A stretch of DNA of 13,716 nucleotides from a virus (IMGVR_UViG_2778261086_000003:1-13716), one strand, 5' to 3'. Shown: positions 2,721 through 13,716, numbered from the stretch's first letter. Numbers and translations: made by a program. Notes: generated by a model not told the origin, from the letters alone.

Positions 2721-3046
2721 ACAGCTCCCCGTTTATTATTTATCTCCTCAGCCAGCCGCTGTGCTTTCAGGGGATTTCGGGTAACAGAAAGGCCGGGAAA
2801 TACCCAGCCTCGCTTTGTAACGGAGTAGACGAAAGTGATCGCGCCTATGAAACCAAGGACCTGGTTGATGTCGTAACCGGCGAAATCACTACTATCCAGT
2901 CGTTACGCCATACCTCCGATCTTGATACCGGAGAGATGTATGTCTTCCTGTGTAAGGTTGAAGCCTGGGCGATGAATATTGGCTGCCACCTGACTATTCC
3001 ACAGAGCTGCGAGTTTCAGCTGCTGCGCGACAAGCAGGAGGCGTAA
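2672..3046 (+). CDS. hypothetical protein, possibly the 3' remnant of a nin-region gene
   Basis: Reading frame ends at a TAA (3044-3046) that overlaps the ninE ATG. It has no convincing ATG with a ribosome-binding site, and its 5' end overlaps the divergent 63-aa gene. May be a truncated remnant left by a deletion. Confidence 0.3.
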   Translation: MPSQCSFLTQQEMLCAYSSPFIIYLLSQPLCFQGISGNRKAGKYPASLCNGVDESDRAYETKDLVDVVTGEITTIQSLRHTSDLDTGEMYVFLCKVEAWAMNIGCHLTIPQSCEFQLLRDKQEA

Positions 3047-3216
3047 TGGCTACACCGCTTATTCGTGTCATGAACGGACACATCTACAGAGTACCAAATC
3101 GTCGTAAGCGTAAACCTGAGCTGAAGCCATCCGAAATACCAACACTGCTCGGATATACCGCCAGCCTGGTTGATAAAAAATGGTTGCGACTGGCAGCAAG
3201 GAGGAGTCATGGCTGA
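3046..3216 (+). CDS. ninE: NinE protein (56 aa)
   Basis: Hand translation [56 protein letters not shown] matches the NinE family. AGGAGG lies 6 nt upstream; the stop overlaps the ybcO start region. Confidence 0.85.
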   Translation: MATPLIRVMNGHIYRVPNRRKRKPELKPSEIPTLLGYTASLVDKKWLRLAARRSHG

Positions 3217-3499
3217 TTTGAGAAAAGCAGCGCGTGGTCGGGAATGCCAGGTAAGAATCCCTGGCGTATGTAATGGCAACCCTGAAACGTCTGTACTGGC
3301 ACATATCCGGCTGACTGGATTGTGCGGCACCGGTACGAAACCGCCAGACCTGATTGCCACCATTGCATGTTCTGCCTGCCACGACGAAATCGACCGCCGC
3401 ACGCATTTTGTTGACGCTGGATATGCAAAAGAATGCGCGCTGGAAGGTATGGCGAGAACACAGGTTATCTGGCTGAAAGAGGGGGTTATTAAGGCGTGA
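3209..3499 (+). CDS. ybcO: YbcO-family nin-region protein (putative Zn-binding nuclease, 96 aa)
   Basis: [37 protein letters not shown]... with GGAGG at 3201-3205. Conserved Cys/His pattern. Sits in the ninE-ybcO-rusA order seen in DLP12-type prophages. Confidence 0.85.
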
Positions 3500-3858
3500 A
3501 TACCTACAGCATCACATTACCCTGGCCTCCGAGCAATAATCGCTATTACCGCCATAATCGCGGGCGCACGCACGTCAGCGCAGAGGGGCAGGCATACCGC
3601 GATAACGTCGCCCGAATCATTAAAAACGCAATGCTGGATATCGGCCTGGCTATGCCTGTGAAAATCCGCATTGAGTGCCACATGCCGGATCGCCGTCGCC
3701 GTGACCTGGATAATCTGCAAAAAGCCGCTTTTGACGCACTCACTAAAGCAGGTTTCTGGCTGGATGATGCTCAGGTCGTTGATTACCGCGTTGTGAAGAT
3801 GCCTGTTACCAAAGGTGGGAGGCTGGAACTGACCATCACCGAAATGGGGAATGAATGA
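3496..3858 (+). CDS. rusA: RusA Holliday-junction resolvase (120 aa)
   Basis: GTG start overlapping the ybcO stop (GTGA). Sequence [28 protein letters not shown]...[10 protein letters not shown] is recognisable as RusA. Confidence 0.9.
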
Positions 3859-3995
3859 TGTTTGAGTTTTATATGGCAGAACTTCTTCGCCACCGCTGGG
3901 GGCATCTGCGCTTATATCGTTTCCCCGGTTCTGTTTTGACCGATTACCGAATACTGAAGAATTACGCCAAAACCCTGACAGGAGCAGGAGTATGA
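3855..3995 (+). CDS. ylcG: YlcG small protein (46 aa)
   Basis: Hand-translated: [50 protein letters not shown] overlap with the rusA stop. Lies between rusA and Q as in DLP12. Confidence 0.75.
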
Positions 3996-4080
3996 AGTCA
4001 GAGATAACAATCAACTAATACTGTTTTGTTGATTTTTGCTTGTAATTGGCGTTCTGGTCTGATTTTTGTGGAGTAAGTTG

Positions 4081-4458
4081 ATGCGTGATATTCAGATGGT
4101 TCTTGAGCGTTGGGGAGCGTGGGCGGCTAATAATCATGAAGATGTGACCTGGTCGTCCATTGCCGCCGGTTTTAAGGGATTAATTACTTCAAAAGTAAAA
4201 TCTCGCCCGCAATGTTGTGACGATGACGCGATGATTATTTGCGGGTGCATGGCCCGTCTGAAAAAGAACAACAGCGATTTGCATGATTTATTGGTGGACT
4301 ATTATGTCGGCGGCATGACTTTTATGGCGCTTGCACGTAAGCATGGGCGATCTGATTGTTGGGTTGGCAGGATGCTCCAGAAAGCTGAGGGCGTAGTGGA
4401 GGGTATGCTGATGGTGTTGGATCTCCGATTGGAGATGGATGCTGATTGTTCGAAATAA
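4081..4458 (+). CDS. quuD: late-gene antiterminator Q (QuuD-like, 125 aa)
   Basis: ATG at 4081 preceded by GGAG (4070-4073); the ORF-track start at 4066 is a TTG extension. [24 protein letters not shown]... resembles DLP12/phage-82-type Q. Followed by a terminator, as expected for the pR'/tR' arrangement. Confidence 0.8.
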
Positions 4459-4558
4459 TTAAAGGAAAAGTTGCTGTCTGATTGTCATTAGTCTAACATT
4501 TTAAATGTTGGAATCGCAACGTAGTTATTATCATATAACAGCTTGTTTCCTGATTTAG
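4459..4558 (+). promoter_or_regulatory. putative late promoter and Q-utilisation region
   Basis: Position only: in lambdoid phages pR' and qut lie between Q and tR'. Weak -35/-10 candidates (TTGCTG...TAACAT) but no confident match. Confidence 0.3.
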
Positions 4559-4585
4559 CCAGCCTCCCCAAAGGCTGGTTTTTTT
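4559..4585 (+). terminator. rho-independent terminator (tR'-like)
   Basis: Stem CCAGCCT (4559-4565), loop CCCCAA, stem AGGCTGG (4572-4578), then TTTTTTT (4579-4585). Plus-strand only; the reverse read has no U-tract. Confidence 0.65.
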
Positions 4586-4613
4586 CTAATAAGTATTATT
4601 TCGGGTAGGGATT

Positions 4614-5138
4614 TTATTGTTTAACCCATAATAATTCATTGACATTGAATCCCAACTTTTGAGCGGTTCGCACATAGTCTGCTTTTACTTTATCTGGAAT
4701 AGTTGGGGTCCTTGCCAGAATCCATAGGTATTCTCTGTTCGGACCACTGACAAGAGCATACTTATACTCATCATCCAGTTTGATTACATTATAGCCACCA
4801 TAGAAGGGGCCAAAAAACGAAACCTTCAATGCTGCAGTTTTAGTATCTCCAGTAAAGTATGCTTTACCTTCGCTCTCGCTCCATTTATTTTTCGTTGGAT
4901 CGTATCCACGGTTAAGTACACGAATCCCTCCGTCGTTCCGTTTTCCATAAGTAGCGCTGACCTGTTCCAGATCACGTTCGAACCGGTTCTCGAGGCGAGC
5001 TATTTCATACCATTTTCCGAGGTAGCGGTTGGCGTCAAAATTTGTAATCGGCTGCACACCTTTAGGTGGTGTCGGGGCCTTACATGCTATAAGAGTGAAA
5101 GAGAGTGCAATGCCAGTCAACACAGGCCATAACTTCAT
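4614..5138 (-). CDS. Blc-family bacterial lipocalin, outer-membrane lipoprotein (174 aa)
   Basis: Signal peptide with lipobox (LIAC), then lipocalin signatures (NFDANRYLGKWYEIARLENRFE...YLWILARTP). Homologous to but distinct from chromosomal Blc. Lower GC than flanking phage genes and antisense to late transcription. Confidence 0.85.
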   Translation of the reverse strand: MKLWPVLTGIALSFTLIACKAPTPPKGVQPITNFDANRYLGKWYEIARLENRFERDLEQVSATYGKRNDGGIRVLNRGYDPTKNKWSESEGKAYFTGDTKTAALKVSFFGPFYGGYNVIKLDDEYKYALVSGPNREYLWILARTPTIPDKVKADYVRTAQKLGFNVNELLWVKQ

Positions 5139-5330
5139 AATAAATCCTGTACTTTTGATAGTTGAGAGTAAGTATGAAAGATAGATGATTACGACCGATC
5201 ACTTAAAGAACTTTCATACTATATTAGGAATAGTCCATAACAGAAAAATTGTCAGTGATGACGCCAGAAAGGCAATTTATTCCGTGCACTACACAGTTTA
5301 TGTGTTAATGAATTAGTCAAGGGGGAGAAT

Positions 5331-6290
5331 ATGATAAAAAAACCTGTGATTGGAATCAGCGGTTGTTTGGCCGGTTCTGCTGTTCGTTTTGATGGTGGTC
5401 ACAAAAGAGCTGACTTTTTAATGGACAAATTAGTGGAATGGGTAACATTCAGACCAGTATGTCCGGAAATGGCTATAGGGCTGCCAGTTCCGCGTCCTGC
5501 TCTACGTCTTGTGCGCTCGACGCAAGGAAATATACGGATGTGTTTCAGCCACGACCAGAATGAGGATGTGACAGAGAGAATGACAGAGTTTAGTCGTTCT
5601 TATATGGACAAATTAAAGGATGTATCGGGGTTTGTGGTTTGTGCTAAATCTCCCAGCTGTGGCATGGAGCGCGTGCGTGTCTATGATGAAAATGGTAATC
5701 GAGGTCGTAAAGATGGAGTGGGACTATTTACGAGTACTTTGATGGAAAAGTTTTCCTGGCTACCGGTTGAAGAGGATGGGCGATTACATGATCCAGTGCT
5801 TCGTGAGAATTTTGTTGAAAGAGTTTTTGCTTTGCATGAGCTCAATCACCTTTACAAGGAGAAATTATCAAGAAGAGAGTTATTAGCTTTTCATAGTCGT
5901 TATAAGCTTCAGTTGTTGGCGCATAGTCAGGCAGGCTATAAAGATATGGGACCATTTGTGGCTGCAATACACGAGTGGGCGGACCTTGAATCATACTTTG
6001 AGGTGTATCGTGATAATCTGATGGCGATTCTCAGAAAACCAGCATCACGTAAAAATCACACGAATGTGCTGATGCATATACAGGGGTATTTTAGTAATTA
6101 CTTAAGTACACGCCAGCGTAAAGAGTTGAGCGAGGTTATACTTAACTATCGCTTTGGCACATTGCCTCTTCTTGCGCCGTTGACTCTGCTGAAGCATTAT
6201 CTGGGTGAGTATCCTAATGATTACTTGCTTACACAGAATTACTTCGATCCCTATCCGGACGAACTGGCTCTAAGACTGATGGTAAATTAA
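5331..6290 (+). CDS. DUF523-DUF1722 fusion protein (RudS/TudS-like putative thionucleoside desulfidase, 319 aa)
   Basis: N-terminus has the DUF523-type Cys pattern (GISGCLAG, PVCPE, CAKSPSCGM), consistent with a [4Fe-4S] TudS-like fold. The C-terminal ~150 aa resemble the DUF1722 (YbgA-like) domain. GGAG 4 nt before the ATG. Domain call from memory, not HMM-verified. Confidence 0.65.
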   Translation: MIKKPVIGISGCLAGSAVRFDGGHKRADFLMDKLVEWVTFRPVCPEMAIGLPVPRPALRLVRSTQGNIRMCFSHDQNEDVTERMTEFSRSYMDKLKDVSGFVVCAKSPSCGMERVRVYDENGNRGRKDGVGLFTSTLMEKFSWLPVEEDGRLHDPVLRENFVERVFALHELNHLYKEKLSRRELLAFHSRYKLQLLAHSQAGYKDMGPFVAAIHEWADLESYFEVYRDNLMAILRKPASRKNHTNVLMHIQGYFSNYLSTRQRKELSEVILNYRFGTLPLLAPLTLLKHYLGEYPNDYLLTQNYFDPYPDELALRLMVN

Positions 6291-6641
6291 TTGTATGCGA
6301 TATCATCCAAAAGGATGAGTTCCTGCATGCAGGATATTTACAATCGTAAAAACTACACTATGATACCCAGAGTGTCAGTTTGTATAAAAACTCTGTTTAC
6401 GCTGAAGAAACAATTGAGATGCAACTTAAAGTTGGTAAACATGCCAGTCAAAATATATAATATTATGATTCCACGCAGCTATATATAATATAACAGATTG
6501 GTTTAATAATTTGTCTTTGTGAGTTAAATACATAATTTTATACTTGTGATGCAATGAAATTTTCCTTATTGTTGAACTGGCGAATATTGATTTTCCACCT
6601 ATACTTACCTGGTGTAACCCCAATGATATCAGGTGGATAAT

Positions 6642-7373
6642 ATGCCATACATATGTTCTATCATTTTGGTGTTGAACTCGTTTGATGTCCGAATTGGTAA
6701 AGAAGATATTTTGTTTAAAAAAGGAAGTGCTGTTCTCATTGATTACAATTTAAAAGATTTTTTTTCATCAAATATAGATCATGTAATGATCGTAGATGTT
6801 GAAGAGAAAACAGTTAATGATTTCTTTAAAAGCAACACACTCTCACCTTTTTCTGTAAGAAGGTTTTATCCGGCATACTTGATGGTGGAATGTGAAGATT
6901 TTTCATTGTTAAAGAACTTGATTGCATGCTTGAATTGTGATGGCAGAACTGTGGATTTTGTTAGAAATCAAATATCACTTGCATGTCTTGCTATCTTATC
7001 TTCAGAGAAAATAGTGCAAAGTTTTTTATTTGGATGTCTTAATAGTTTAGGAAGTAAAGTTAAGGCTATTATTCACACGGATATATCTGCAGCATGGAGA
7101 CTTTGTGATATATCTTCAAGACTGTATCTGAGTGAAAGTCTGTTAAAAAGAAAATTAAAGCACGAAGGCTTATCATTTAGTAAGTTAATTCTTGAAGAGC
7201 GAATGGTGATGGCGGAAAGGTTATTAAGCTACAATTTATATTCTGTTGGAAAAGTTGCTGAGATATGCGGTTATGAAAACACGTCATATTTTGTAAGTGT
7301 TTTCAGAAGATATTTTGGTGTTCCTCCCCATCAATATTCATCAAGATTTTTTTTAGAAAAAGACATGATGTAA
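6642..7373 (+). CDS. AraC/XylS-family transcriptional regulator (243 aa)
   Basis: C-terminal AraC-type HTH region (LLKRKLKHEGLSFSKLILEERMVMAERLL...VGKVAEICGYENTSYFVSVFRRYFGVPPHQY). ATG at 6642 with AGGTGG 5 nt upstream; the ORF-track start at 6633 is a GTG extension. Very AT-rich gene and leader. Confidence 0.75.
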   Translation: MPYICSIILVLNSFDVRIGKEDILFKKGSAVLIDYNLKDFFSSNIDHVMIVDVEEKTVNDFFKSNTLSPFSVRRFYPAYLMVECEDFSLLKNLIACLNCDGRTVDFVRNQISLACLAILSSEKIVQSFLFGCLNSLGSKVKAIIHTDISAAWRLCDISSRLYLSESLLKRKLKHEGLSFSKLILEERMVMAERLLSYNLYSVGKVAEICGYENTSYFVSVFRRYFGVPPHQYSSRFFLEKDMM

Positions 7374-7434
7374 CGTGATGCGTTTTAATGATTTTGTAAT
7401 TTTCGTATTTGATAATTGTATGATGCTTTCAGCT

Positions 7435-7466
7435 ACGCCAGAATAATCGCTGGCGTTTTTCTTTTT
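7435..7466 (+). terminator. rho-independent terminator downstream of the AraC gene
   Basis: Stem CGCCAG (7436-7441), loop AATAATCG, stem CTGGCG (7450-7455), then TTTTTCTTTTT. Confidence 0.55.
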
Positions 7467-7561
7467 GAATAGATGTTCAAGCCTTACGCTAATGTAACTT
7501 CTATACCTTTCCTCTTCGTTCCGAACCGTGTACACCATCCGTTATTTGCGGAGGTGAGGCT

Positions 7562-7777
7562 ATGAAATCTATGGATAAGTTAACAACGGGCATTGCCTAC
7601 GGTACCTCCGCAGGCAGTGCTGGCTACTGGTTTTTACAGCTGCTCGATAAAGTCACGCCCTCACAGTGGGCAGCAATAGGTGTATTGGGTAGTCTGGTAT
7701 TTGGCCTGCTGACGTACCTGACAAACCTTTATTTCAAGATTAAAGAAGATAAGCGCAAGGCTGCGAGAGGTGAATAA
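7562..7777 (+). CDS. essD: class II holin (phage 21 S21-like pinholin, 71 aa)
   Basis: [26 protein letters not shown]...; two transmembrane segments; dual-start motif Met1-Lys-Ser-Met4. GGAGGTGAGG ribosome-binding site. Stop overlaps the endolysin ATG (TAATG). Symbol follows DLP12 naming. Confidence 0.85.
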
Positions 7778-8274
7778 TGCCTCCATCATTACGAAAAGCC
7801 GTTGCTGCGGCTATTGGTGGCGGGGCTATTGCTATAGCATCTGTGTTAATCACTGGCCCAAGTGGTAACGATGGTCTGGAAGGCGTCAGCTACATACCAT
7901 ATAAAGATATCGTTGGTGTATGGACTGTATGTTACGGGCATACCGGAAAAGACATTATGCTCGGTAAAACGTATACCGAAGCAGAATGCAAAGCCCTCCT
8001 GAATAAAGACCTTGCCACTGTCGCCAGACAAATTAACCCGTACATCAAAGTCGATATACCGGAAACAACGCGCGGCGCTCTTTACTCGTTCGTTTACAAC
8101 GTTGGTGCTGGAAATTTCAGAACATCGACGCTTCTTCGCAAAATAAACCAGGGCGATATCAAAGGCGCATGTGATCAGCTACGGCGCTGGACATACGCTG
8201 GCGGTAAGCAATGGAAAGGGCTGATGACTCGCCGTGAGATTGAGCGTGAAGTCTGTTTGTGGGGGCAACAATGA
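7777..8274 (+). CDS. rrrD: SAR endolysin (phage 21 R21-like lysozyme, 165 aa)
   Basis: N-terminal Gly/Ala-rich weakly hydrophobic SAR segment ([20 protein letters not shown]), then a T4-lysozyme-like catalytic core. Stop overlaps the next ATG (ATGA). Symbol follows DLP12 naming. Confidence 0.9.
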
Positions 8275-8503
8275 GTAGAGTAACCGCGATTATGGTTCGA
8301 AATGGGATGTTATCCGTGAACGTGTGCTCAAGCGTGACAAAGGACTGTGTCAGTTATGTCTGCGTGGTGGTGTGGTGCGTGAGGCGAAAACCGTTGACCA
8401 CATCATCCCTAAAGCACATGGCGGCACTGATGCCGACAGCAATCTGCAGAGCCTGTGCTGGCCGTGTCATAAGGCGAAGACGGCCCGTGAACGGCTGAAG
8501 TAA
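8271..8503 (+). pseudogene. Rz (spanin) start fused to the 3' fragment of an HNH endonuclease gene
   Basis: ATG at 8271 encodes MSRVTAI, identical to the first seven residues of lambda-type Rz, then diverges. A different frame (from ~8279, after an in-frame TAG at 8276-8278, to TAA 8501-8503) encodes SNRDYGSKWDVIRERVLKRDKGLCQLC...DHIIPKAHGGTDADSNLQSLCWPCHKAKTARERLK, an HNH C-terminus with no start codon. Confidence 0.6.
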
Positions 8504-8628
8504 GAACCAGTTCCCACTGCCAGAGGGGAGGGGCGGGTCAAATCCCTGTGACCTGACGTCTTCCGGACTGCCCGCCCCATCGTTTTTTTATACCCGCGAA
8601 AAATGAAATTTAACCAGGAGTGCCGCAT
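8504..8628. other. putative cos / packaging-site region
   Basis: Non-coding, GC-rich, with an imperfect inverted repeat (GGGGCGGG ... CCCGCCCC) and a T-tract, located between the HNH fragment and the small terminase gene, the usual cos position in HK97-like modules. Cleavage site not identifiable by eye. Confidence 0.3.
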
Positions 8629-9123
8629 ATGGCTGGAACGGCGGGGCGTTCCGGGCGTCGCCCCAAGCCAACGGCGCGCAAGGCGCTGGCCGGAAACCCC
8701 GGCAAGCGAGCCCTGAACAAAGATGAACCTGTTTTTACGCCCATCAAAGGTGTTGAGCCACCGGAGTGGTTCGCTGAAGAAGATCTCCCTCTCGCCACGA
8801 TCATGTGGCAACTGACAACCAAAGAACTCTGCGGTCAGGGCCTGCTGTGCGTGACTGACCTCGCGGTGCTTGAGCGGTGGTGCGTGGCCTATGAGTTCTG
8901 GCGACGTGCCGTGAAAAATATTGCCAGACAGGGCAACACCATCACCGGTGCAATGGGCGGCATGGTCAAAAATCCGGAGCTGACCGCCAAAAAAGAACAG
9001 GAGTCCGAGATGAGCAGCACGGGGGCAATGCTCGGACTCGACCCCAGCAGCCGTCAGCGTCTGATTGGCCTGGCGGGGCAGAAGAAAACCACTAACCCGT
9101 TTCTGAAAATCATCGAATCATGA
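8629..9123 (+). CDS. terminase small subunit (P27/HK97 gp1-like, 164 aa)
   Basis: ATG at 8629 with AGGAG 9 nt upstream; the ORF-track start at 8620 is a GTG extension. Basic N-terminus ([27 protein letters not shown]). Stop overlaps the large terminase ATG (ATGA). Confidence 0.8.
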
Positions 9124-9938
9124 GCCGGAAATCTTACCCCAACGTAAATGCTGCCAATCAGTATGCCCGGGATGTCGTGCGCGGAAAGATTGTGGCCTGC
9201 CAGTTTGTGATTCAGGCCTGCCAGCGCCATCTTGATGACCTGATGGAGGAAAAAAGTAAGTCGTTTCGTTACCGCTTCGACAAGGACCTGGCTGAACGGG
9301 CCGCGAAATTTATTCAGCTGTTGCCGCACACCAAGGGTGAGTGGGCATTTAAGAGGATGCCCATCACGCTGGAGCCGTGGCAGCTCTTTGTGATCTGCTG
9401 CGCGTTTGGCTGGGTCAATAAAGGCTCCCGGCTGCGCCGCTTCTGTGAGGTGTATACCGAAATCCCCCGTAAGAACGGCAAATCGGCAATCTCTGCCGGT
9501 GTCGCCCTGTATTGTTTTGCCTGTGATAACGAGTTTGGCGCGGAAGTGTATTCCGGTGCCACGACAGAGAAACAGGCGTGGGAAGTCTTTCGCCCGGCGC
9601 GACTGATGTGTAAACGCACACCCATGCTGACGGAAGCGTTCGGGATTGAGGTTAACGCCTCAAACATGAACCGTCCGGAGGATGGCGCGCGGTTTGAACC
9701 GCTGATCGGCAACCCCGGTGATGGTTCATCACCCCACTGTGCGGTGGTGGATGAATATCACGAGCACGCCACCGATGCGCTTTATACCACGATGCTTACC
9801 GGGATGGGGGCGCGACGTCAGCCACTGATGTGGGCCATCACCACCGCCGGGTACAACATTGAGGGGCCGTGCTACGACAAGCGGCGGGAAGTTATCGAGA
9901 TGCTCAACGGTTCGGTATCAAATCGGATGGCACGGTGA
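9120..9938 (+). pseudogene. terminase large subunit, 3'-truncated (N-terminal ATPase domain only, 272 codons)
   Basis: Walker A motif (EIPRKNGKS) and ATPase-domain sequence present. The reading frame stops after ...EMLNGSV, whereas intact large terminases are roughly twice this length. Downstream sequence switches to unrelated glycine-rich coding. Confidence 0.8.
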
Positions 9939-10600
9939 AAACGGCTCTCGAAAACCTTGGTTTGGGAGATGGCTCGGGGCGTTACAGCAAAACTGTCGTT
10001 TTTTCATCGTCGGGTTCATATACGTGGCCAGCTGACGTAAAACGAATTGACGTTATTCTGACTGCGGGGGGCGGCGGTGGCGGTGGATGTAACGCGGAGA
10101 ACGCAAATCAGACATTTTCAGGGGCTGGCGGAGGAGCCGGAGGTACTGTTTTTGCCACTATTTATGCGACAGACAACGATGCCGGGCCAGGGACCTATAC
10201 AGTGACAATTGGCAGCGGTGGTAGTGGTGCCAATGGGCCAGGGTCTGGAAATAATGGCGGTAATAGTTCGTTCATGACATTAACTGCGCTCGGCGGCCAG
10301 GGTGGGCAATGGGGCGGCGCTACAAATACCGCTGGCGGGCGCGGTGGCTCAGGCTCTGGCGGTTATAAAACTGAACAAGGCGGAGACGGTTCAGACGGAC
10401 AGGCGGGCCAGGCGCTATTAGTAGGCAATGGGGCATCGAGCTATTGGGGTGGCGGCGGCCGCGCTGGGCAACTGAGCGGTAATCCTGGAGTTTGCTCTGG
10501 CTCCGGCGGCGGGGGTGCATACGATAATAGCTATTCACACACGTCAGGACGTGGCGGGCACGGAGCTAATGGCGTGCTGGTAATTCGGGAGTTCATGTAA
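9869..10600 (+). CDS. glycine-rich tail-fibre C-terminal fragment (5' end missing; real start unknown)
   Basis: ORF of 243 codons overlapping the truncated terminase. Sequence ...[26 protein letters not shown]... followed by long GGxGG/GSG runs is characteristic of glycine-rich domains of phage tail fibres. Immediately followed by a tail fibre assembly gene. The first ~15 codons are probably terminase DNA read out of frame. Confidence 0.5.
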
Positions 10601-11005
10601 ATGAATGATATCTATGCAGTTGTTGATAATAACGTTGTTATTAATGTCATTATCTGGGACGGAATTTCTGAATGGAAACCAGAGGCTGGTAATTTAGTTC
10701 CGTTAAACGGCGATGCTGGCATCGGTTGGTCATATTCAGACGGAGTATTTACCGCGCCACCTCCCCCAGAACGCTCTCACAACGCGTTAGTTGCGGAGGC
10801 TGAGCTGCAGAAATCAGCACTACTGACCGTAGCAAATAACACAATAGCACCGCTGCAGGATGCCGTTGATTTGGAAATGGCGACAGACGATGAACAGGCG
10901 TTAATGCTGGCGTGGAAAAAATACAGGGTACTGCTGAACCGTGTTGATACCTCAGCGGCACCCGAAATAGAGTGGCCTACGCAACCGGGGGAGCGGGCCA
11001 GTTGA
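10601..11005 (+). CDS. tail fibre assembly protein (Tfa, 134 aa)
   Basis: C-terminus ...[48 protein letters not shown] matches the conserved Tfa chaperone C-terminal domain. Start is immediately after the upstream stop (TAAATG). Confidence 0.8.
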
Positions 11006-11293: not shown

Positions 11294-12415
11294 TTAAGAT
11301 ATTCTTTTAGCTATAGAATGACCTATATTTATAAACGGTTTTTCTATTACGTTATATATCAAGTAAGATAGGCTTATAGAAATTATGAGCGATGATATAT
11401 AAATGGCAAACGATCTATGTTCAGTGCTAATACCAATACTGGAACCGTAAAACTCAATAAACTGTATAACAGGAACATGAATCAGATAAAGTGAATATGA
11501 TATTCCACCAAGAGCAACAAGTGATTTATTGAATGAAATAACTTTATTATTTTCTAGAATAATAACACACAAAACAATCAGAAATGCAATATATGCAGAT
11601 CGCGTCAAACCATGTCCTTCAGACACCCCATTAAGCCAAAAAACAAACATCATTCCTAGAATGAAAACGCATAAACTATTTATAATAGAATTATTCATTC
11701 TTTTATGCCTAAGTAAAGGCATTGTCTCTGATATAATCATCCCTAAAATGAAATCATATACTATAGGATTGCCTATGAATCCTATATGAGAAAACACCCC
11801 TGTTTTTGCAATATTGAATGATTGGGCGTCAATTACTACCGAGTGGTTAAAGTAAAGAGAAATAATTGTACTTACAGCAACTAGAAAACATGATGTGATT
11901 AATACCCTGTATTTTATGCTTAATGACATGGATATTGCGAAAATAAAATAAAAATATATCTCGTACCCAAGTGACCATGAAACAATTAGCGTTCCCCACC
12001 CATAATATGGCGGTAGAGTTGAGACATCTAAAGGGATGAGAAGAAATGATTTTATAATATTATTTATAGAAAAAACACCACCCCATGATACGCCTGTGTA
12101 AATATTGTGGTAAAAAAGAAAAACATAAACGCTTAATACTATTGCGTAAACAGGATAAATTCTAAAAAATCTCTTTACAAGAAATGAGGCGGTATTTCTT
12201 AAAGATGTTTTTGTAAAGTTTTTAGTTGAGTATGATATTATAAATCCGCTTATTATAAAAAACAATTCAACTCCAAATATAGCATTCGCGGTTATCCTGT
12301 CCATGAAAGAACCAGGATCTACTTGCCCGAAAAGACCTCTATTATGACCAATAGCTACAGCAAGAGCTGCAATTCCACGAAGCGCTTCTATTCCGTATAA
12401 TTTATCTGTTTTCAT
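11294..12415 (-). CDS. acyltransferase-3 family integral membrane O-acyltransferase (Oac/OafA-like, ~373 aa)
   Basis: Multi-pass hydrophobic protein with the N-terminal acyltransferase-3 signature (LYGIEALRGIAALAVAIGH). Start placed at ATG 12415; the ORF-track start at 12418 is a TTG. Very AT-rich and adjacent to the integrase, as for O-antigen acetylase genes of Shigella phages. Confidence 0.85.
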   Translation of the reverse strand: MKTDKLYGIEALRGIAALAVAIGHNRGLFGQVDPGSFMDRITANAIFGVELFFIISGFIISYSTKNFTKTSLRNTASFLVKRFFRIYPVYAIVLSVYVFLFYHNIYTGVSWGGVFSINNIIKSFLLIPLDVSTLPPYYGWGTLIVSWSLGYEIYFYFIFAISMSLSIKYRVLITSCFLVAVSTIISLYFNHSVVIDAQSFNIAKTGVFSHIGFIGNPIVYDFILGMIISETMPLLRHKRMNNSIINSLCVFILGMMFVFWLNGVSEGHGLTRSAYIAFLIVLCVIILENNKVISFNKSLVALGGISYSLYLIHVPVIQFIEFYGSSIGISTEHRSFAIYISSLIISISLSYLIYNVIEKPFINIGHSIAKRIS

Positions 12416-12558
12416 CAAGTAATATAGTTAGTAGTTGATAAAATTGTTGCTGGAGTCTACCACCAAGAGCTTGGATGATCGACCAGTTAGCATCTCAAGC
12501 TGTATGCGTGAGACAAAAACGAGACACACAAAGCTTTGCAAGTCTTTGCGCTGTTTAC

Positions 12559-13716
12559 CTATGATACCTTCTCCTCAATCCAATCCGCCCACCACTGCAT
12601 CATTTCTCTGCGCTTATCGAGATACTGAGCATGGTTGTAAATCCCGCGCACAGATCCGCCGTTGGCATGTGCCAGTTGCACTTCAATAGCATCAGCAGGC
12701 CATTCGTGCTCGTTCATAATCGTGCTGAATTCATGCCTGAATCCGTGACCGCTTTCCAGACCTTCATAGCCGATTTGTTTGATCACAAGCAGTACAGCGT
12801 TCTCGCAAATTGGCTTCTTCTTATCGTTGCGCCCGGCAAAAACAAACTCTGATACTGGTTTGGTGATTGAACTTAGCGTAGTGAGAAGTTCAACTACCTG
12901 GTCTGACATAGGAACCACATGAATCTTGCGTCCCTTCATCACACTGGCCTCGATGGTGATAATCCTGTTTTCAAAATCGACGTTCTTCCATTGCATGGAA
13001 CGAAGCTCTTTTGTTCTTAGTGCTGTGTAGCGTAAAACTTTGGTCGCAATGAGAGATACGATACTTCCTGAAAATGTTGCAAGTGCTTTGTTGAATGCCG
13101 GGATCTGGTCGGCAGGTAAAAACGGGAAGTTCTTCTTGCGGTATCCTTTCATGGCGTCTGCAAGGTCAGGTGCCGGGTTATATTTAGCCCTTCCGGTGAC
13201 AATAGCGTAACGAAAAACCTCGCCGCATCTTCTGCGGGCTTTGTTGGCTCGCTCCATTGCACCGCGATCTTCAAATCTTCGGATTACTTCCAGCAGTTGC
13301 ATCGGCTCAATATCCTGAATTTCAAGACCGCCGATGATGGGTAAAATGTCGTCATCAAACATTTTGGCAAGTTCAGTTGCATAGCCTACTGACCAGACTT
13401 GCTTCTTGTGCTCGTACCATTCCTTGTAAATCGCACTAAATGAATTGTTGTTAGACGAAGCCTTTTTCGCCTTTACCGGATCGATGCCAACCGAGATGTC
13501 TTTCCTCGCAGTCCATGCCTTATCCCTTGCTTCCTGCAAAGTCATAAGCGGATATTTTCCGACAGTCAGGATTTTCTCCTTACCGTCAATCTTGTAGCGA
13601 AGCTGCCATACCTTTTTCCCTGATACAGGGACATAAAGGTACAGGCCATTACCATCGAGTAGGCGGTATGGTTTTTCTTTCGGCTTTGCTGCTTCAATCT
13701 GCTTAACGGTGAGCAT
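12559..13716 (-). CDS. tyrosine-type site-specific integrase (P4/CPS-53 IntS-like, 385 aa)
   Basis: Full ORF whose ATG is the last three bases of the window. C-terminal catalytic signature (HGFRHEF ... LAHANGGSVRGIYNHAQY). N-terminus MLTVKQIEAAKPKEKPYRLLDGNGLYLYVPV is typical of tRNA-associated P4-family integrases. Attachment site would lie beyond the window. Confidence 0.9.
   Translation of the reverse strand: MLTVKQIEAAKPKEKPYRLLDGNGLYLYVPVSGKKVWQLRYKIDGKEKILTVGKYPLMTLQEARDKAWTARKDISVGIDPVKAKKASSNNNSFSAIYKEWYEHKKQVWSVGYATELAKMFDDDILPIIGGLEIQDIEPMQLLEVIRRFEDRGAMERANKARRRCGEVFRYAIVTGRAKYNPAPDLADAMKGYRKKNFPFLPADQIPAFNKALATFSGSIVSLIATKVLRYTALRTKELRSMQWKNVDFENRIITIEASVMKGRKIHVVPMSDQVVELLTTLSSITKPVSEFVFAGRNDKKKPICENAVLLVIKQIGYEGLESGHGFRHEFSTIMNEHEWPADAIEVQLAHANGGSVRGIYNHAQYLDKRREMMQWWADWIEEKVS

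Follow-up and report, generated by a model that had tools for sequence, protein, structure and literature searches.

A Q-to-holin cassette carrying blc, rudS and an AraC-type regulator gene in E. coli prophages is probably a composite of two units

Results

Three non-phage genes lie between Q and the holin gene

We analyzed a stretch of viral DNA, IMGVR_UViG_2778261086_000003:1-13716 (13,716 nucleotides [nt]; hereafter, the window), in which an AT-rich cargo island (4586–7561) lies between the antiterminator gene Q and the holin gene of a lambdoid prophage. The list of open reading frames (ORFs) places three intact non-phage ORFs in this interval: the lipocalin gene blc, the tRNA-modification gene rudS and a gene for an AraC-type regulator. 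An initial annotation had called the products a Blc-like lipoprotein, a DUF523-DUF1722 protein and an AraC-family regulator, assignments that Pfam and NCBIfam models bear out. It had also proposed the trio as the window's best candidate for an undescribed accessory system; this proposal finds no support, since the parts are in the literature (PMC6969025, PMC11417400) and the block is common. As set out below, the island is probably a composite moron cassette, made of two units of separate history that most likely act independently.

The first gene, blc, occupies 4614–5138 on the minus strand, antisense to late transcription. It encodes a predicted outer-membrane lipocalin lipoprotein of the Blc type, 174 amino acids (aa) in length (Pfam Lipocalin_2, E = 1e-43), that scores 314.5 bits against the NCBIfam Blc model NF007786 (cut-off 267) and matches crystallized Blc in the Protein Data Bank (PDB 3mbt, E = 4e-68). 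The lipobox, read directly from the sequence, is L-I-A-C19 (MKLWPVLTGIALSFTLIAC19-KAP), with no Asp at position +2. Phage Blc is 76–81% identical to chromosomal lipocalins linked to rudS, as compared with 64% to E. coli's own Blc; the latter identity, to a crystallized protein, suggests that phage Blc would reside in the outer membrane and bind lipid (lysophospholipid). A 2020 study counted blc among the lambda morons, with >50% of its 19 infant-gut lambdas carrying the gene (PMC6969025). Between blc and rudS is a divergent intergenic region of 192 bp (5139–5330; GC content [GC] 0.34), which presumably holds the promoters of both genes.

The second gene, rudS (5331–6290, plus strand), encodes a 319-aa fusion of a TudS (DUF523) domain, matched by Pfam 2-thiour_desulf at residues 7–149 (E = 8e-40), and a DUF1722 domain at residues 192–309 (E = 8e-40). 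RudS has been defined as a TudS-DUF1722 fusion that removes 4-thiouridine (s4U) from tRNA (Jamontas et al. 2024, PMC11417400). By converting s4U at tRNA position 8 to uridine, RudS erases a near-UV photosensor; left in place, this modification crosslinks, prevents charging and sets off a growth delay through the stringent response (PMC11417400). All RudS variants, including RudS_vir, lowered tRNA s4U when overexpressed in E. coli, which is described as lacking chromosomal rudS, and overexpression of RudS_KT of P. putida reduced the growth delay induced by ultraviolet A (UVA) (PMC11417400). The window protein is 93.1% identical to RudS_vir, which is gp66 of Escherichia phage 1H12. It has Cys12, Cys44 and Cys110, the residues listed as [4Fe-4S] cluster ligands for RudS_vir and RudS_ST (PMC11417400 Table 1), and its C12, C44 and E46 align with C10, C43 and E45 of the TudS crystal structure 6z92. 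Judged by these residues and identities, the DUF523-DUF1722 protein is RudS, a predicted [4Fe-4S] tRNA 4-thiouridine desulfidase. In the 1H12 genome, gp66 lies inside the same island: Q is gp64, Blc is gp65 (minus strand), the AraC-type protein, annotated as hypothetical, is gp67 and the holin is gp68. We also note a 403-aa E. coli record (P0002), from a single contig, that matches RudS at 99% identity across 92% of the query and has an additional GGDEF hit (PF00990); this fusion may be a product of rearrangement or assembly.

The third gene begins at 6642 (or 6633) and ends at 7373 on the plus strand, encoding an AraC/XylS-family regulator of 243 or 246 aa with matches to HTH_18 (residues 161–237, E = 1e-14) and HTH_AraC. 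Among NCBIfam models, it scores highest against YdeO (127 bits; cut-off 348), and it reaches 85 bits against GadX, for which the cut-off is 500. The protein is 54% identical to ECs_0287 of strain Sakai, 64% to protein P0133 and 56% to P0135, and its homologues are few and nearly all from E. coli. PatE is described as the AraC-like regulator of CP-933H/OI-8. Since ECs_0287 is encoded in Sakai Sp1, which we take to be the equivalent of CP-933H, and is 98% identical to the AraC-domain proteins P0137 and P0138, we take it to be PatE. Given the scores below the YdeO and GadX cut-offs and the 54% identity to ECs_0287, the island protein classifies as a PatE-family paralogue, not an orthologue.

The regulator gene is flanked by two predicted signals on the plus strand. 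Between rudS and the gene is a sigma-70-like promoter, TTTACA-16-TATGAT (6337–6364), which is the best match in the region (10/12 positions). This 28-nt block hardly varies among the three island allele groups described below (one substitution at most), with insertions and deletions in the surrounding DNA, and is probably the regulator's own promoter. After the gene, just upstream of the holin gene, is a terminator-like hairpin with a T run (7435–7465) that is conserved in all island alleles and in a slot that carries only a regulator gene (L095).

The island is a cassette in a known moron slot

The left anchor of the slot is Q (4081–4458, plus strand; Phage_antitermQ, E = 1e-50). Its start is the ATG at 4081 in RefSeq relatives, although a mechanical ORF call starts at the TTG at 4066, and Q is 96–99% identical across all island-bearing viral contigs. 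An intrinsic terminator follows on the plus strand at 4557–4588, where the initial annotation had placed one at 4559–4585; it consists of a hairpin with a 9-bp stem containing 5 G-C pairs, followed by a T run. From lambdoid architecture, this terminator is presumed to be the equivalent of tR′, and a consensus scan gave no convincing placement of pR′ between Q and the terminator. The right anchor is a P21-type holin gene (S/EssD; 7562–7777, plus strand; Phage_holin_2_1, E = 2e-35), next to which is the lysozyme gene.

Comparison with DLP12 of E. coli K-12 defines the exchanged DNA. Window positions 2838–4440 are 96.6% identical to DLP12 from ybcN to near the end of quuD, and positions 7551–8293 are 94.3% identical to essD-rrrD; the ~3.1 kb between them stands where DLP12 has nmpC::IS5. 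Since homology stops at 4440 and restarts at 7551, the swapped cassette is 4441–7550, which takes in the final 18 nt of Q and the stretch from Q to the terminator. The island is a cassette allele of a well-known moron slot on a DLP12-like backbone, allelic to nmpC, as the initial annotation had supposed: it lies between the post-Q terminator and the holin gene and, by comparison with DLP12, is exchangeable cargo on the same backbone. Of the other traits of morons, a distinct composition is present, and a promoter-like sequence (6337–6364) and a hairpin (7435–7465) are predicted.

The markedly AT-rich character noted initially is borne out by a GC of 0.382 in the island versus 0.508 in the phage backbone (z about 14; the flanks are 48–54% GC). 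The bias is uneven, as blc (0.436) and rudS (0.432; GC at third codon positions [GC3] about 0.40) are less extreme than the AraC gene (0.317; GC3 0.26). The region from 6291 onward is about 32–33% GC, and the blc/rudS part and the AraC part differ with a z of about 7. Neither Rfam (at the gathering score) nor ARAGORN found an RNA family or a tRNA in the whole window, giving no sign of hidden RNA genes like the tRNA clusters of Stx phages.

One island lineage is common in E. coli

Island sequences were counted in 5426 complete E. coli genomes, requiring at least 80% coverage in one place. The whole slot (4400–7800) is present in 986 genomes, the blc plus rudS stretch in 1047 and the AraC stretch in 983. 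The island also occurs in 12 sequenced phages and 35 IMG/VR contigs, so that the trio recurs at the same junction, and the order Q-blc(−)-rudS-araC-holin is found in the 20 viral contigs in which all five genes were detected. The island of phage IdasGreatGrand matches that of the window at 99.1%, and those of 11 infant-gut "Lambda_ev"/1H12 phages match at about 89%. The recurrence and the foreign composition both hold, but the trio has not been re-assembled independently: all copies belong to one island lineage with 89–99% nt identity.

The alleles fall into three groups, in which RudS is 99%, 98% and 93% identical to the window protein and the AraC-type protein is 99–100%, 85–87% and 83% identical, respectively. 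Between island alleles, Blc keeps 97% aa identity, RudS 93% and the AraC-type protein 83%. The ratio of nonsynonymous to synonymous substitution rates (dN/dS) is 0.07 for blc, 0.10 for rudS and 0.27 for the AraC gene (dS 0.2–0.35), and all three genes are under purifying selection.

To a large extent, the island is a common annotated block with known function, an outcome that the initial annotation had itself named as counting against its proposal. RefSeq names the products "lipocalin family protein", "YbgA family" or "DUF523 and DUF1722 domain-containing protein", and "helix-turn-helix domain-containing protein". In PHROG, all three genes fall into families labeled "unknown function".

Some islands have decayed (L062, L077 and genome hits H19–H22, H42, H65 and H66). 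L062 (from about 6383) and L077 (about 2128–2893) have a truncated or interrupted AraC gene, several genomes have IS2/IS3 insertions in the island, and a few retain only the DUF523 half of rudS.

The regulator gene has a history of its own

Relatives of the regulator gene occupy the same slot without blc and rudS. The genes for P0133 and P0135 sit alone directly downstream of Q in other prophages (L094 and L095). P0135 is 84% identical to PatE, and its gene is directly followed by the holin gene, which places it in the same Q-to-S slot; in L095, this slot also has the island's post-regulator terminator hairpin and the sequence just upstream of the holin gene. PatE-type genes are additionally found in the tail-fibre/integrase slot of phages ev099 and mEp332. 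Because the AraC gene of the island has a lower GC, a lower identity between alleles (83% versus 93–97%) and a higher dN/dS than its neighbors, and because islands in which it is disrupted keep blc and rudS, it is most likely an independently mobile moron beside which blc and rudS came to lie. The notion that the three genes form one unit, which the initial annotation had left open, is thus not borne out, as the AraC gene stands apart in GC and divergence and its relatives occur alone in the slot.

The blc/rudS pair resembles a chromosomal locus

The nearest non-phage RudS proteins are 72–76% identical to the window protein and are encoded on the chromosomes of Citrobacter, Klebsiella, Enterobacter, Serratia and related genera. 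We tabulated the neighbors of rudS in 41 species-level enterobacterial loci. The layout blc(−)/MerR(+)/rudS(+) is found in 17 of these (e.g., Enterobacter, Leclercia, Lelliottia, Phytobacter and Pseudenterobacter), and, outside the set, in Serratia rubidaea. Three loci have blc(−)/rudS(+) with no MerR gene (L015, L038 and L047). In 15 others (e.g., in Citrobacter and Klebsiella), rudS is the last gene of a cluster encoding an SDR protein, an amine oxidase, DUF1365, CFA synthase and DUF3833. MerR is present and blc was not detected in two loci (L019 and L029, the latter cut by the locus end), rudS stands alone in three (L011, L012 and L014) and it lies inside a prophage in one (L024). The pair in Citrobacter sedlakii is in a core-genome context (BCCT transporter, blc, rudS, pseudouridine synthase, SBF transporter, aspartokinase) and has a spacer of 187 bp, compared with 192 bp in the island. 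The DUF3833 lipoprotein gene stands before rudS in the CFA-synthase-type clusters, and a hidden kinship of its product with lipocalins would connect both kinds of context; hhalign gave this a probability of 2%, with shallow alignments (Neff about 1.4), and the idea was not retained.

Published work ties rudS to light-responsive regulation by MerR/LitR, including in E. cloacae and Salmonella (PMC11417400), and the chromosomal blc/MerR/rudS arrangement would on this basis be a near-UV or photo-oxidative stress locus. The shared layout, the shared lipocalin subtype and the similar divergence of blc and rudS suggest that the phage pair probably derives from such a chromosomal locus, without its MerR gene; none appears in the ORF list or the neighbor table of the island. 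BLAST and inspection by eye also detected no remnant of a MerR gene or operator in the 192-bp spacer. BLAST of this spacer against chromosomal spacers gave no match, and by eye only the ~45 nt proximal to blc resemble DNA upstream of chromosomal blc. Between two island alleles whose genes show dS of 0.20–0.32, the spacer (5139–5330) is 92% identical.

Two further features were seen upstream of chromosomal rudS genes. One is a conserved promoter-like motif, ACTTGnACAAAnA...TTGTGTAAnTTTTAG (L006, about 5720–5770; L020, about 4940–4985; L038, about 4920–4970), which may be the operator of the adjacent MerR-family regulator and is absent from the phage island spacer. The other, read from intergenic sequence, is an ORF of about 135 aa, of a small secreted-protein type, that lies 5′ of rudS in Enterobacter-type loci (L020, 4386–5000; L038, 4140–5000), between rudS and either the MerR gene or blc.

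A copy of rudS alone is also found in the nin region of Citrobacter-type lambdoid prophages (L084–L089 and L024; about 4376–8886 per locus), where the gene order is DnaT-like, IstB-like, PerC, DUF977, rudS, DinI, RusA, DUF968, Q. This copy is 72% identical to that of the window, has a GC of 0.47 and encodes a protein 100% identical to a Citrobacter protein cluster. By its sequence and position, we classify it as a second, independent phage capture, and the separate capture of rudS alone suggests that the gene is worth carrying by itself.

The remainder of the prophage

The prophage in the window appears to be defective, with the whole head and tail region deleted. Compared with an intact relative (L001, 12895–14246), 1352 bp are gone after the lysozyme gene (junction 8285–8293), taking the Rz/Rz1 spanin gene, a DUF6979 gene, a small ORF and the 5′ half of an HNH endonuclease gene, and the lysis cassette is therefore incomplete. 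The large terminase gene (region 9120–11005) departs from its full-length relative at about 9917 and abuts a glycine-rich tail-fibre fragment (9869–10600), which is followed by a tail-fibre assembly gene (10601–11005). None of the 5426 genomes contains the whole window (at least 80% in one place). A second AT-rich cargo gene (11294–12418, minus strand; GC 0.315, GC3 0.237) encodes an Acyl_transf_3 membrane acyltransferase, has no PADLOC match and adjoins the gene for an IntS-type integrase (12559–13716, minus strand); it resembles an O-antigen-modifying moron located at the end next to int.

Discussion

How might such a cassette work? In the composite that we favor, the first unit would be the divergent blc/rudS pair, drawn from an enterobacterial stress locus, and the second would be the PatE-family regulator gene with its own promoter and terminator. 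blc would be expressed in the lysogen from a promoter in the divergent spacer, against the late direction. In lambda, bor likewise has its own promoter, runs counter to late transcription and is expressed in lysogens. Since rudS and the regulator gene are on the late strand, downstream of the post-Q terminator, they would be transcribed from whatever promoters they have and, once the prophage is induced, also by Q-modified polymerase that reads through the 4557–4588 terminator into the island and on into the lysis genes S and R. The prophage would supply an s4U-erasing activity to a host that has no chromosomal rudS. As PatE, PsrB and AppY activate GAD/hdeA acid-resistance genes, our guess by analogy is that the island regulator likewise switches on host genes, for example those of the GAD acid-resistance regulon. 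Taken together, the parts would amount to independent additions to stress tolerance: erasure of a tRNA photosensor, an envelope lipocalin and a regulator tied to host stress regulons. We infer the promoters, the timing of expression, the targets of the regulator and the benefit to the host from sequence.

Several observations weigh against this picture. RudS_vir was weaker in the overexpression assay, despite good protein levels (PMC11417400). The 54% identity to PatE is too low to transfer regulator targets with confidence, and the AraC gene accompanies blc and rudS in about 94% of carriers, as functional dependency would also give. The chromosomal origin of the pair faces difficulties as well, since the genome scan found no close donor, phage RudS is about 25% diverged from every chromosomal homologue, a neighbor-joining tree places it on a long branch outside all sampled Enterobacterales and the context types are interspersed on the tree. 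Given that there is no close donor, joint capture of blc and rudS is argued from their layout and the lipocalin subtype. The GC of phage rudS (0.43, against a median of 0.575 for chromosomal rudS) points either to long residence in phages or to an unsampled donor.

One alternative, which we regard as possible but clearly less probable, is that RudS serves the phage itself. As the first late-strand gene past the post-Q terminator, rudS would be expressed mainly during lytic growth, from the onset of late transcription once UV or the SOS response has induced the prophage. By removing s4U from the tRNA of the host, RudS would keep the near-UV stringent response from halting synthesis of late phage proteins under light or UV stress, which is also what induces lambdoid prophages; any benefit to the lysogen would be secondary, with Blc and the regulator as lysogen-side additions. 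Lambdoid phages would, on this account, have gained rudS for a lytic purpose at least twice independently, once in the Q-to-S slot of E. coli phages and once beside dinI in the nin region of Citrobacter-type prophages. Consistent with such a role, rudS is co-oriented with lytic transcription in both captures, no strong promoter of its own is predicted (the sole match, at 5162–5189, fits 9/12 positions) and the phage copies have a phage-like GC of 0.43–0.47, far from the chromosomal median, suggesting long residence in phages. However, two captures in the same orientation are expected by chance with a probability of about 0.25–0.5, the blc/rudS spacer is conserved beyond synonymous sites, as fits promoters belonging to these genes, and crosslinked s4U is not known as a RudS substrate.

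Another possibility, which we consider unlikely, is that the three genes form an integrated system in which the AraC-type regulator took over from the lost MerR protein and controls the blc and rudS promoters. In favor of such a replacement, the island has neither the MerR gene that stands between blc and rudS in 17 of the 41 loci nor the MerR-type motif upstream of rudS. Downstream of rudS, the AraC gene also lies on the same strand, no terminator is predicted in the gap, and members of its clade (nt identity of 80% or more) hardly ever occur apart from blc and rudS (983 genomes, versus 986 with the trio). However, all carriers belong to one island lineage, and their number does not count as independent evidence. 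Paralogues 56–64% identical to the regulator occupy the same slot without blc and rudS, in L095 with the same terminator, and the AraC gene stands apart in both GC and evolutionary rate. Furthermore, C. sedlakii and two other species keep blc/rudS without an adjacent regulator, and islands with a disrupted AraC gene persist. These observations agree better with two units of separate history.

We think it very improbable that the island functions in defence or superinfection exclusion, with Blc masking a receptor in the manner of Llp or Cor, or with the trio acting against phages. Many prophage outer-membrane lipoproteins do exclude superinfecting phages, and blc is oriented for expression in the lysogen. 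Nonetheless, a defence role, raised for context in the initial annotation, finds no counterpart among PADLOC models, which matched none of the three island proteins; Blc scores above its NCBIfam cut-off and closely resembles chromosomal lipocalins of a housekeeping type (76–81% identity), and RudS_vir has a demonstrated biochemical activity that is unrelated to defence. That the island is inert, hitch-hiking DNA holding the decaying remnants of captured host genes is hardly credible: although the window prophage is defective and some genomes have insertion sequences or truncated copies of rudS or the AraC gene, about 1000 genomes, as well as plaque-forming phages, have intact ORFs, dN/dS is 0.07–0.27, the catalytic cysteines are kept and the orthologue RudS_vir is active.

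What follows from the analysis? About 19% of complete E. coli genomes carry a prophage-borne rudS, even though the species is described as lacking RudS, and tRNA s4U levels and near-UV responses may differ between E. coli strains because of a prophage. The main value of our analysis lies in annotation and context, since prophage copies of rudS are named only "YbgA family" or by DUF523/DUF1722. The island also offers a ready natural setting in which to ask what, if anything, a temperate phage or its lysogen gains from a tRNA-modification eraser. It extends by one member the PatE/PsrB/AppY group, whose prophage-encoded regulators rewire host stress regulons.

Although we found no published description of the trio as a unit, every part of the island has precedent, from the slot (nmpC and stx) and the blc moron to RudS_vir and the PatE-type prophage regulators, and it is not a new kind of system. 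The closest precedent is the island of 1H12, whose RudS_vir shares with the window protein the TudS-DUF1722 fusion, the length of 319 aa, Cys12/Cys44/Cys110 and the same Q-blc-rudS-araC-holin setting. The window allele is separate, with 8% nt divergence, and is assigned by sequence, whereas activity was demonstrated for RudS_vir; that study took the gene alone, without its phage context, its neighbors or its prevalence in E. coli (PMC11417400). With nmpC of DLP12 and stx of Stx phages, the island shares the position from the post-Q terminator to the holin gene, and the DLP12 flanks are 94–97% identical. The cargo differs, being a porin or a toxin in those phages and a tRNA-modification eraser, a lipocalin and a regulator in the island.

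The individual genes also have well-characterized relatives. Phage Blc has in common with chromosomal Blc of E. coli (PDB 3mbt, 1qwd and 2aco) the family, the length and the lipoprotein signal, but at only 64% identity, and it represents the rudS-linked subtype that is not on the E. coli chromosome. Like PatE, PsrA, PsrB and AppY, the regulator is about 245 aa in length, with a C-terminal AraC DNA-binding domain, and is encoded by an AT-rich lambdoid moron; it differs as a distinct paralogue that falls under the YdeO equivalog cut-off, its identity to PatE having been measured against ECs_0287.

Finally, the chromosomal blc/MerR/rudS locus of Enterobacter cloacae and Serratia rubidaea has both genes in divergent orientation, the same lipocalin subtype and 70–81% aa identity; in Salmonella, the pairing is of MerR with RudS (ORF319). 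The phage island differs from that locus in having neither the MerR gene nor the motif upstream of rudS, in a GC lower by ~14 points and in the foreign AraC gene downstream. Against these precedents, what is new is the proposed chromosomal origin of blc/rudS without MerR, the likely independence of the regulator, the prevalence of rudS in E. coli prophages and the second capture of rudS.

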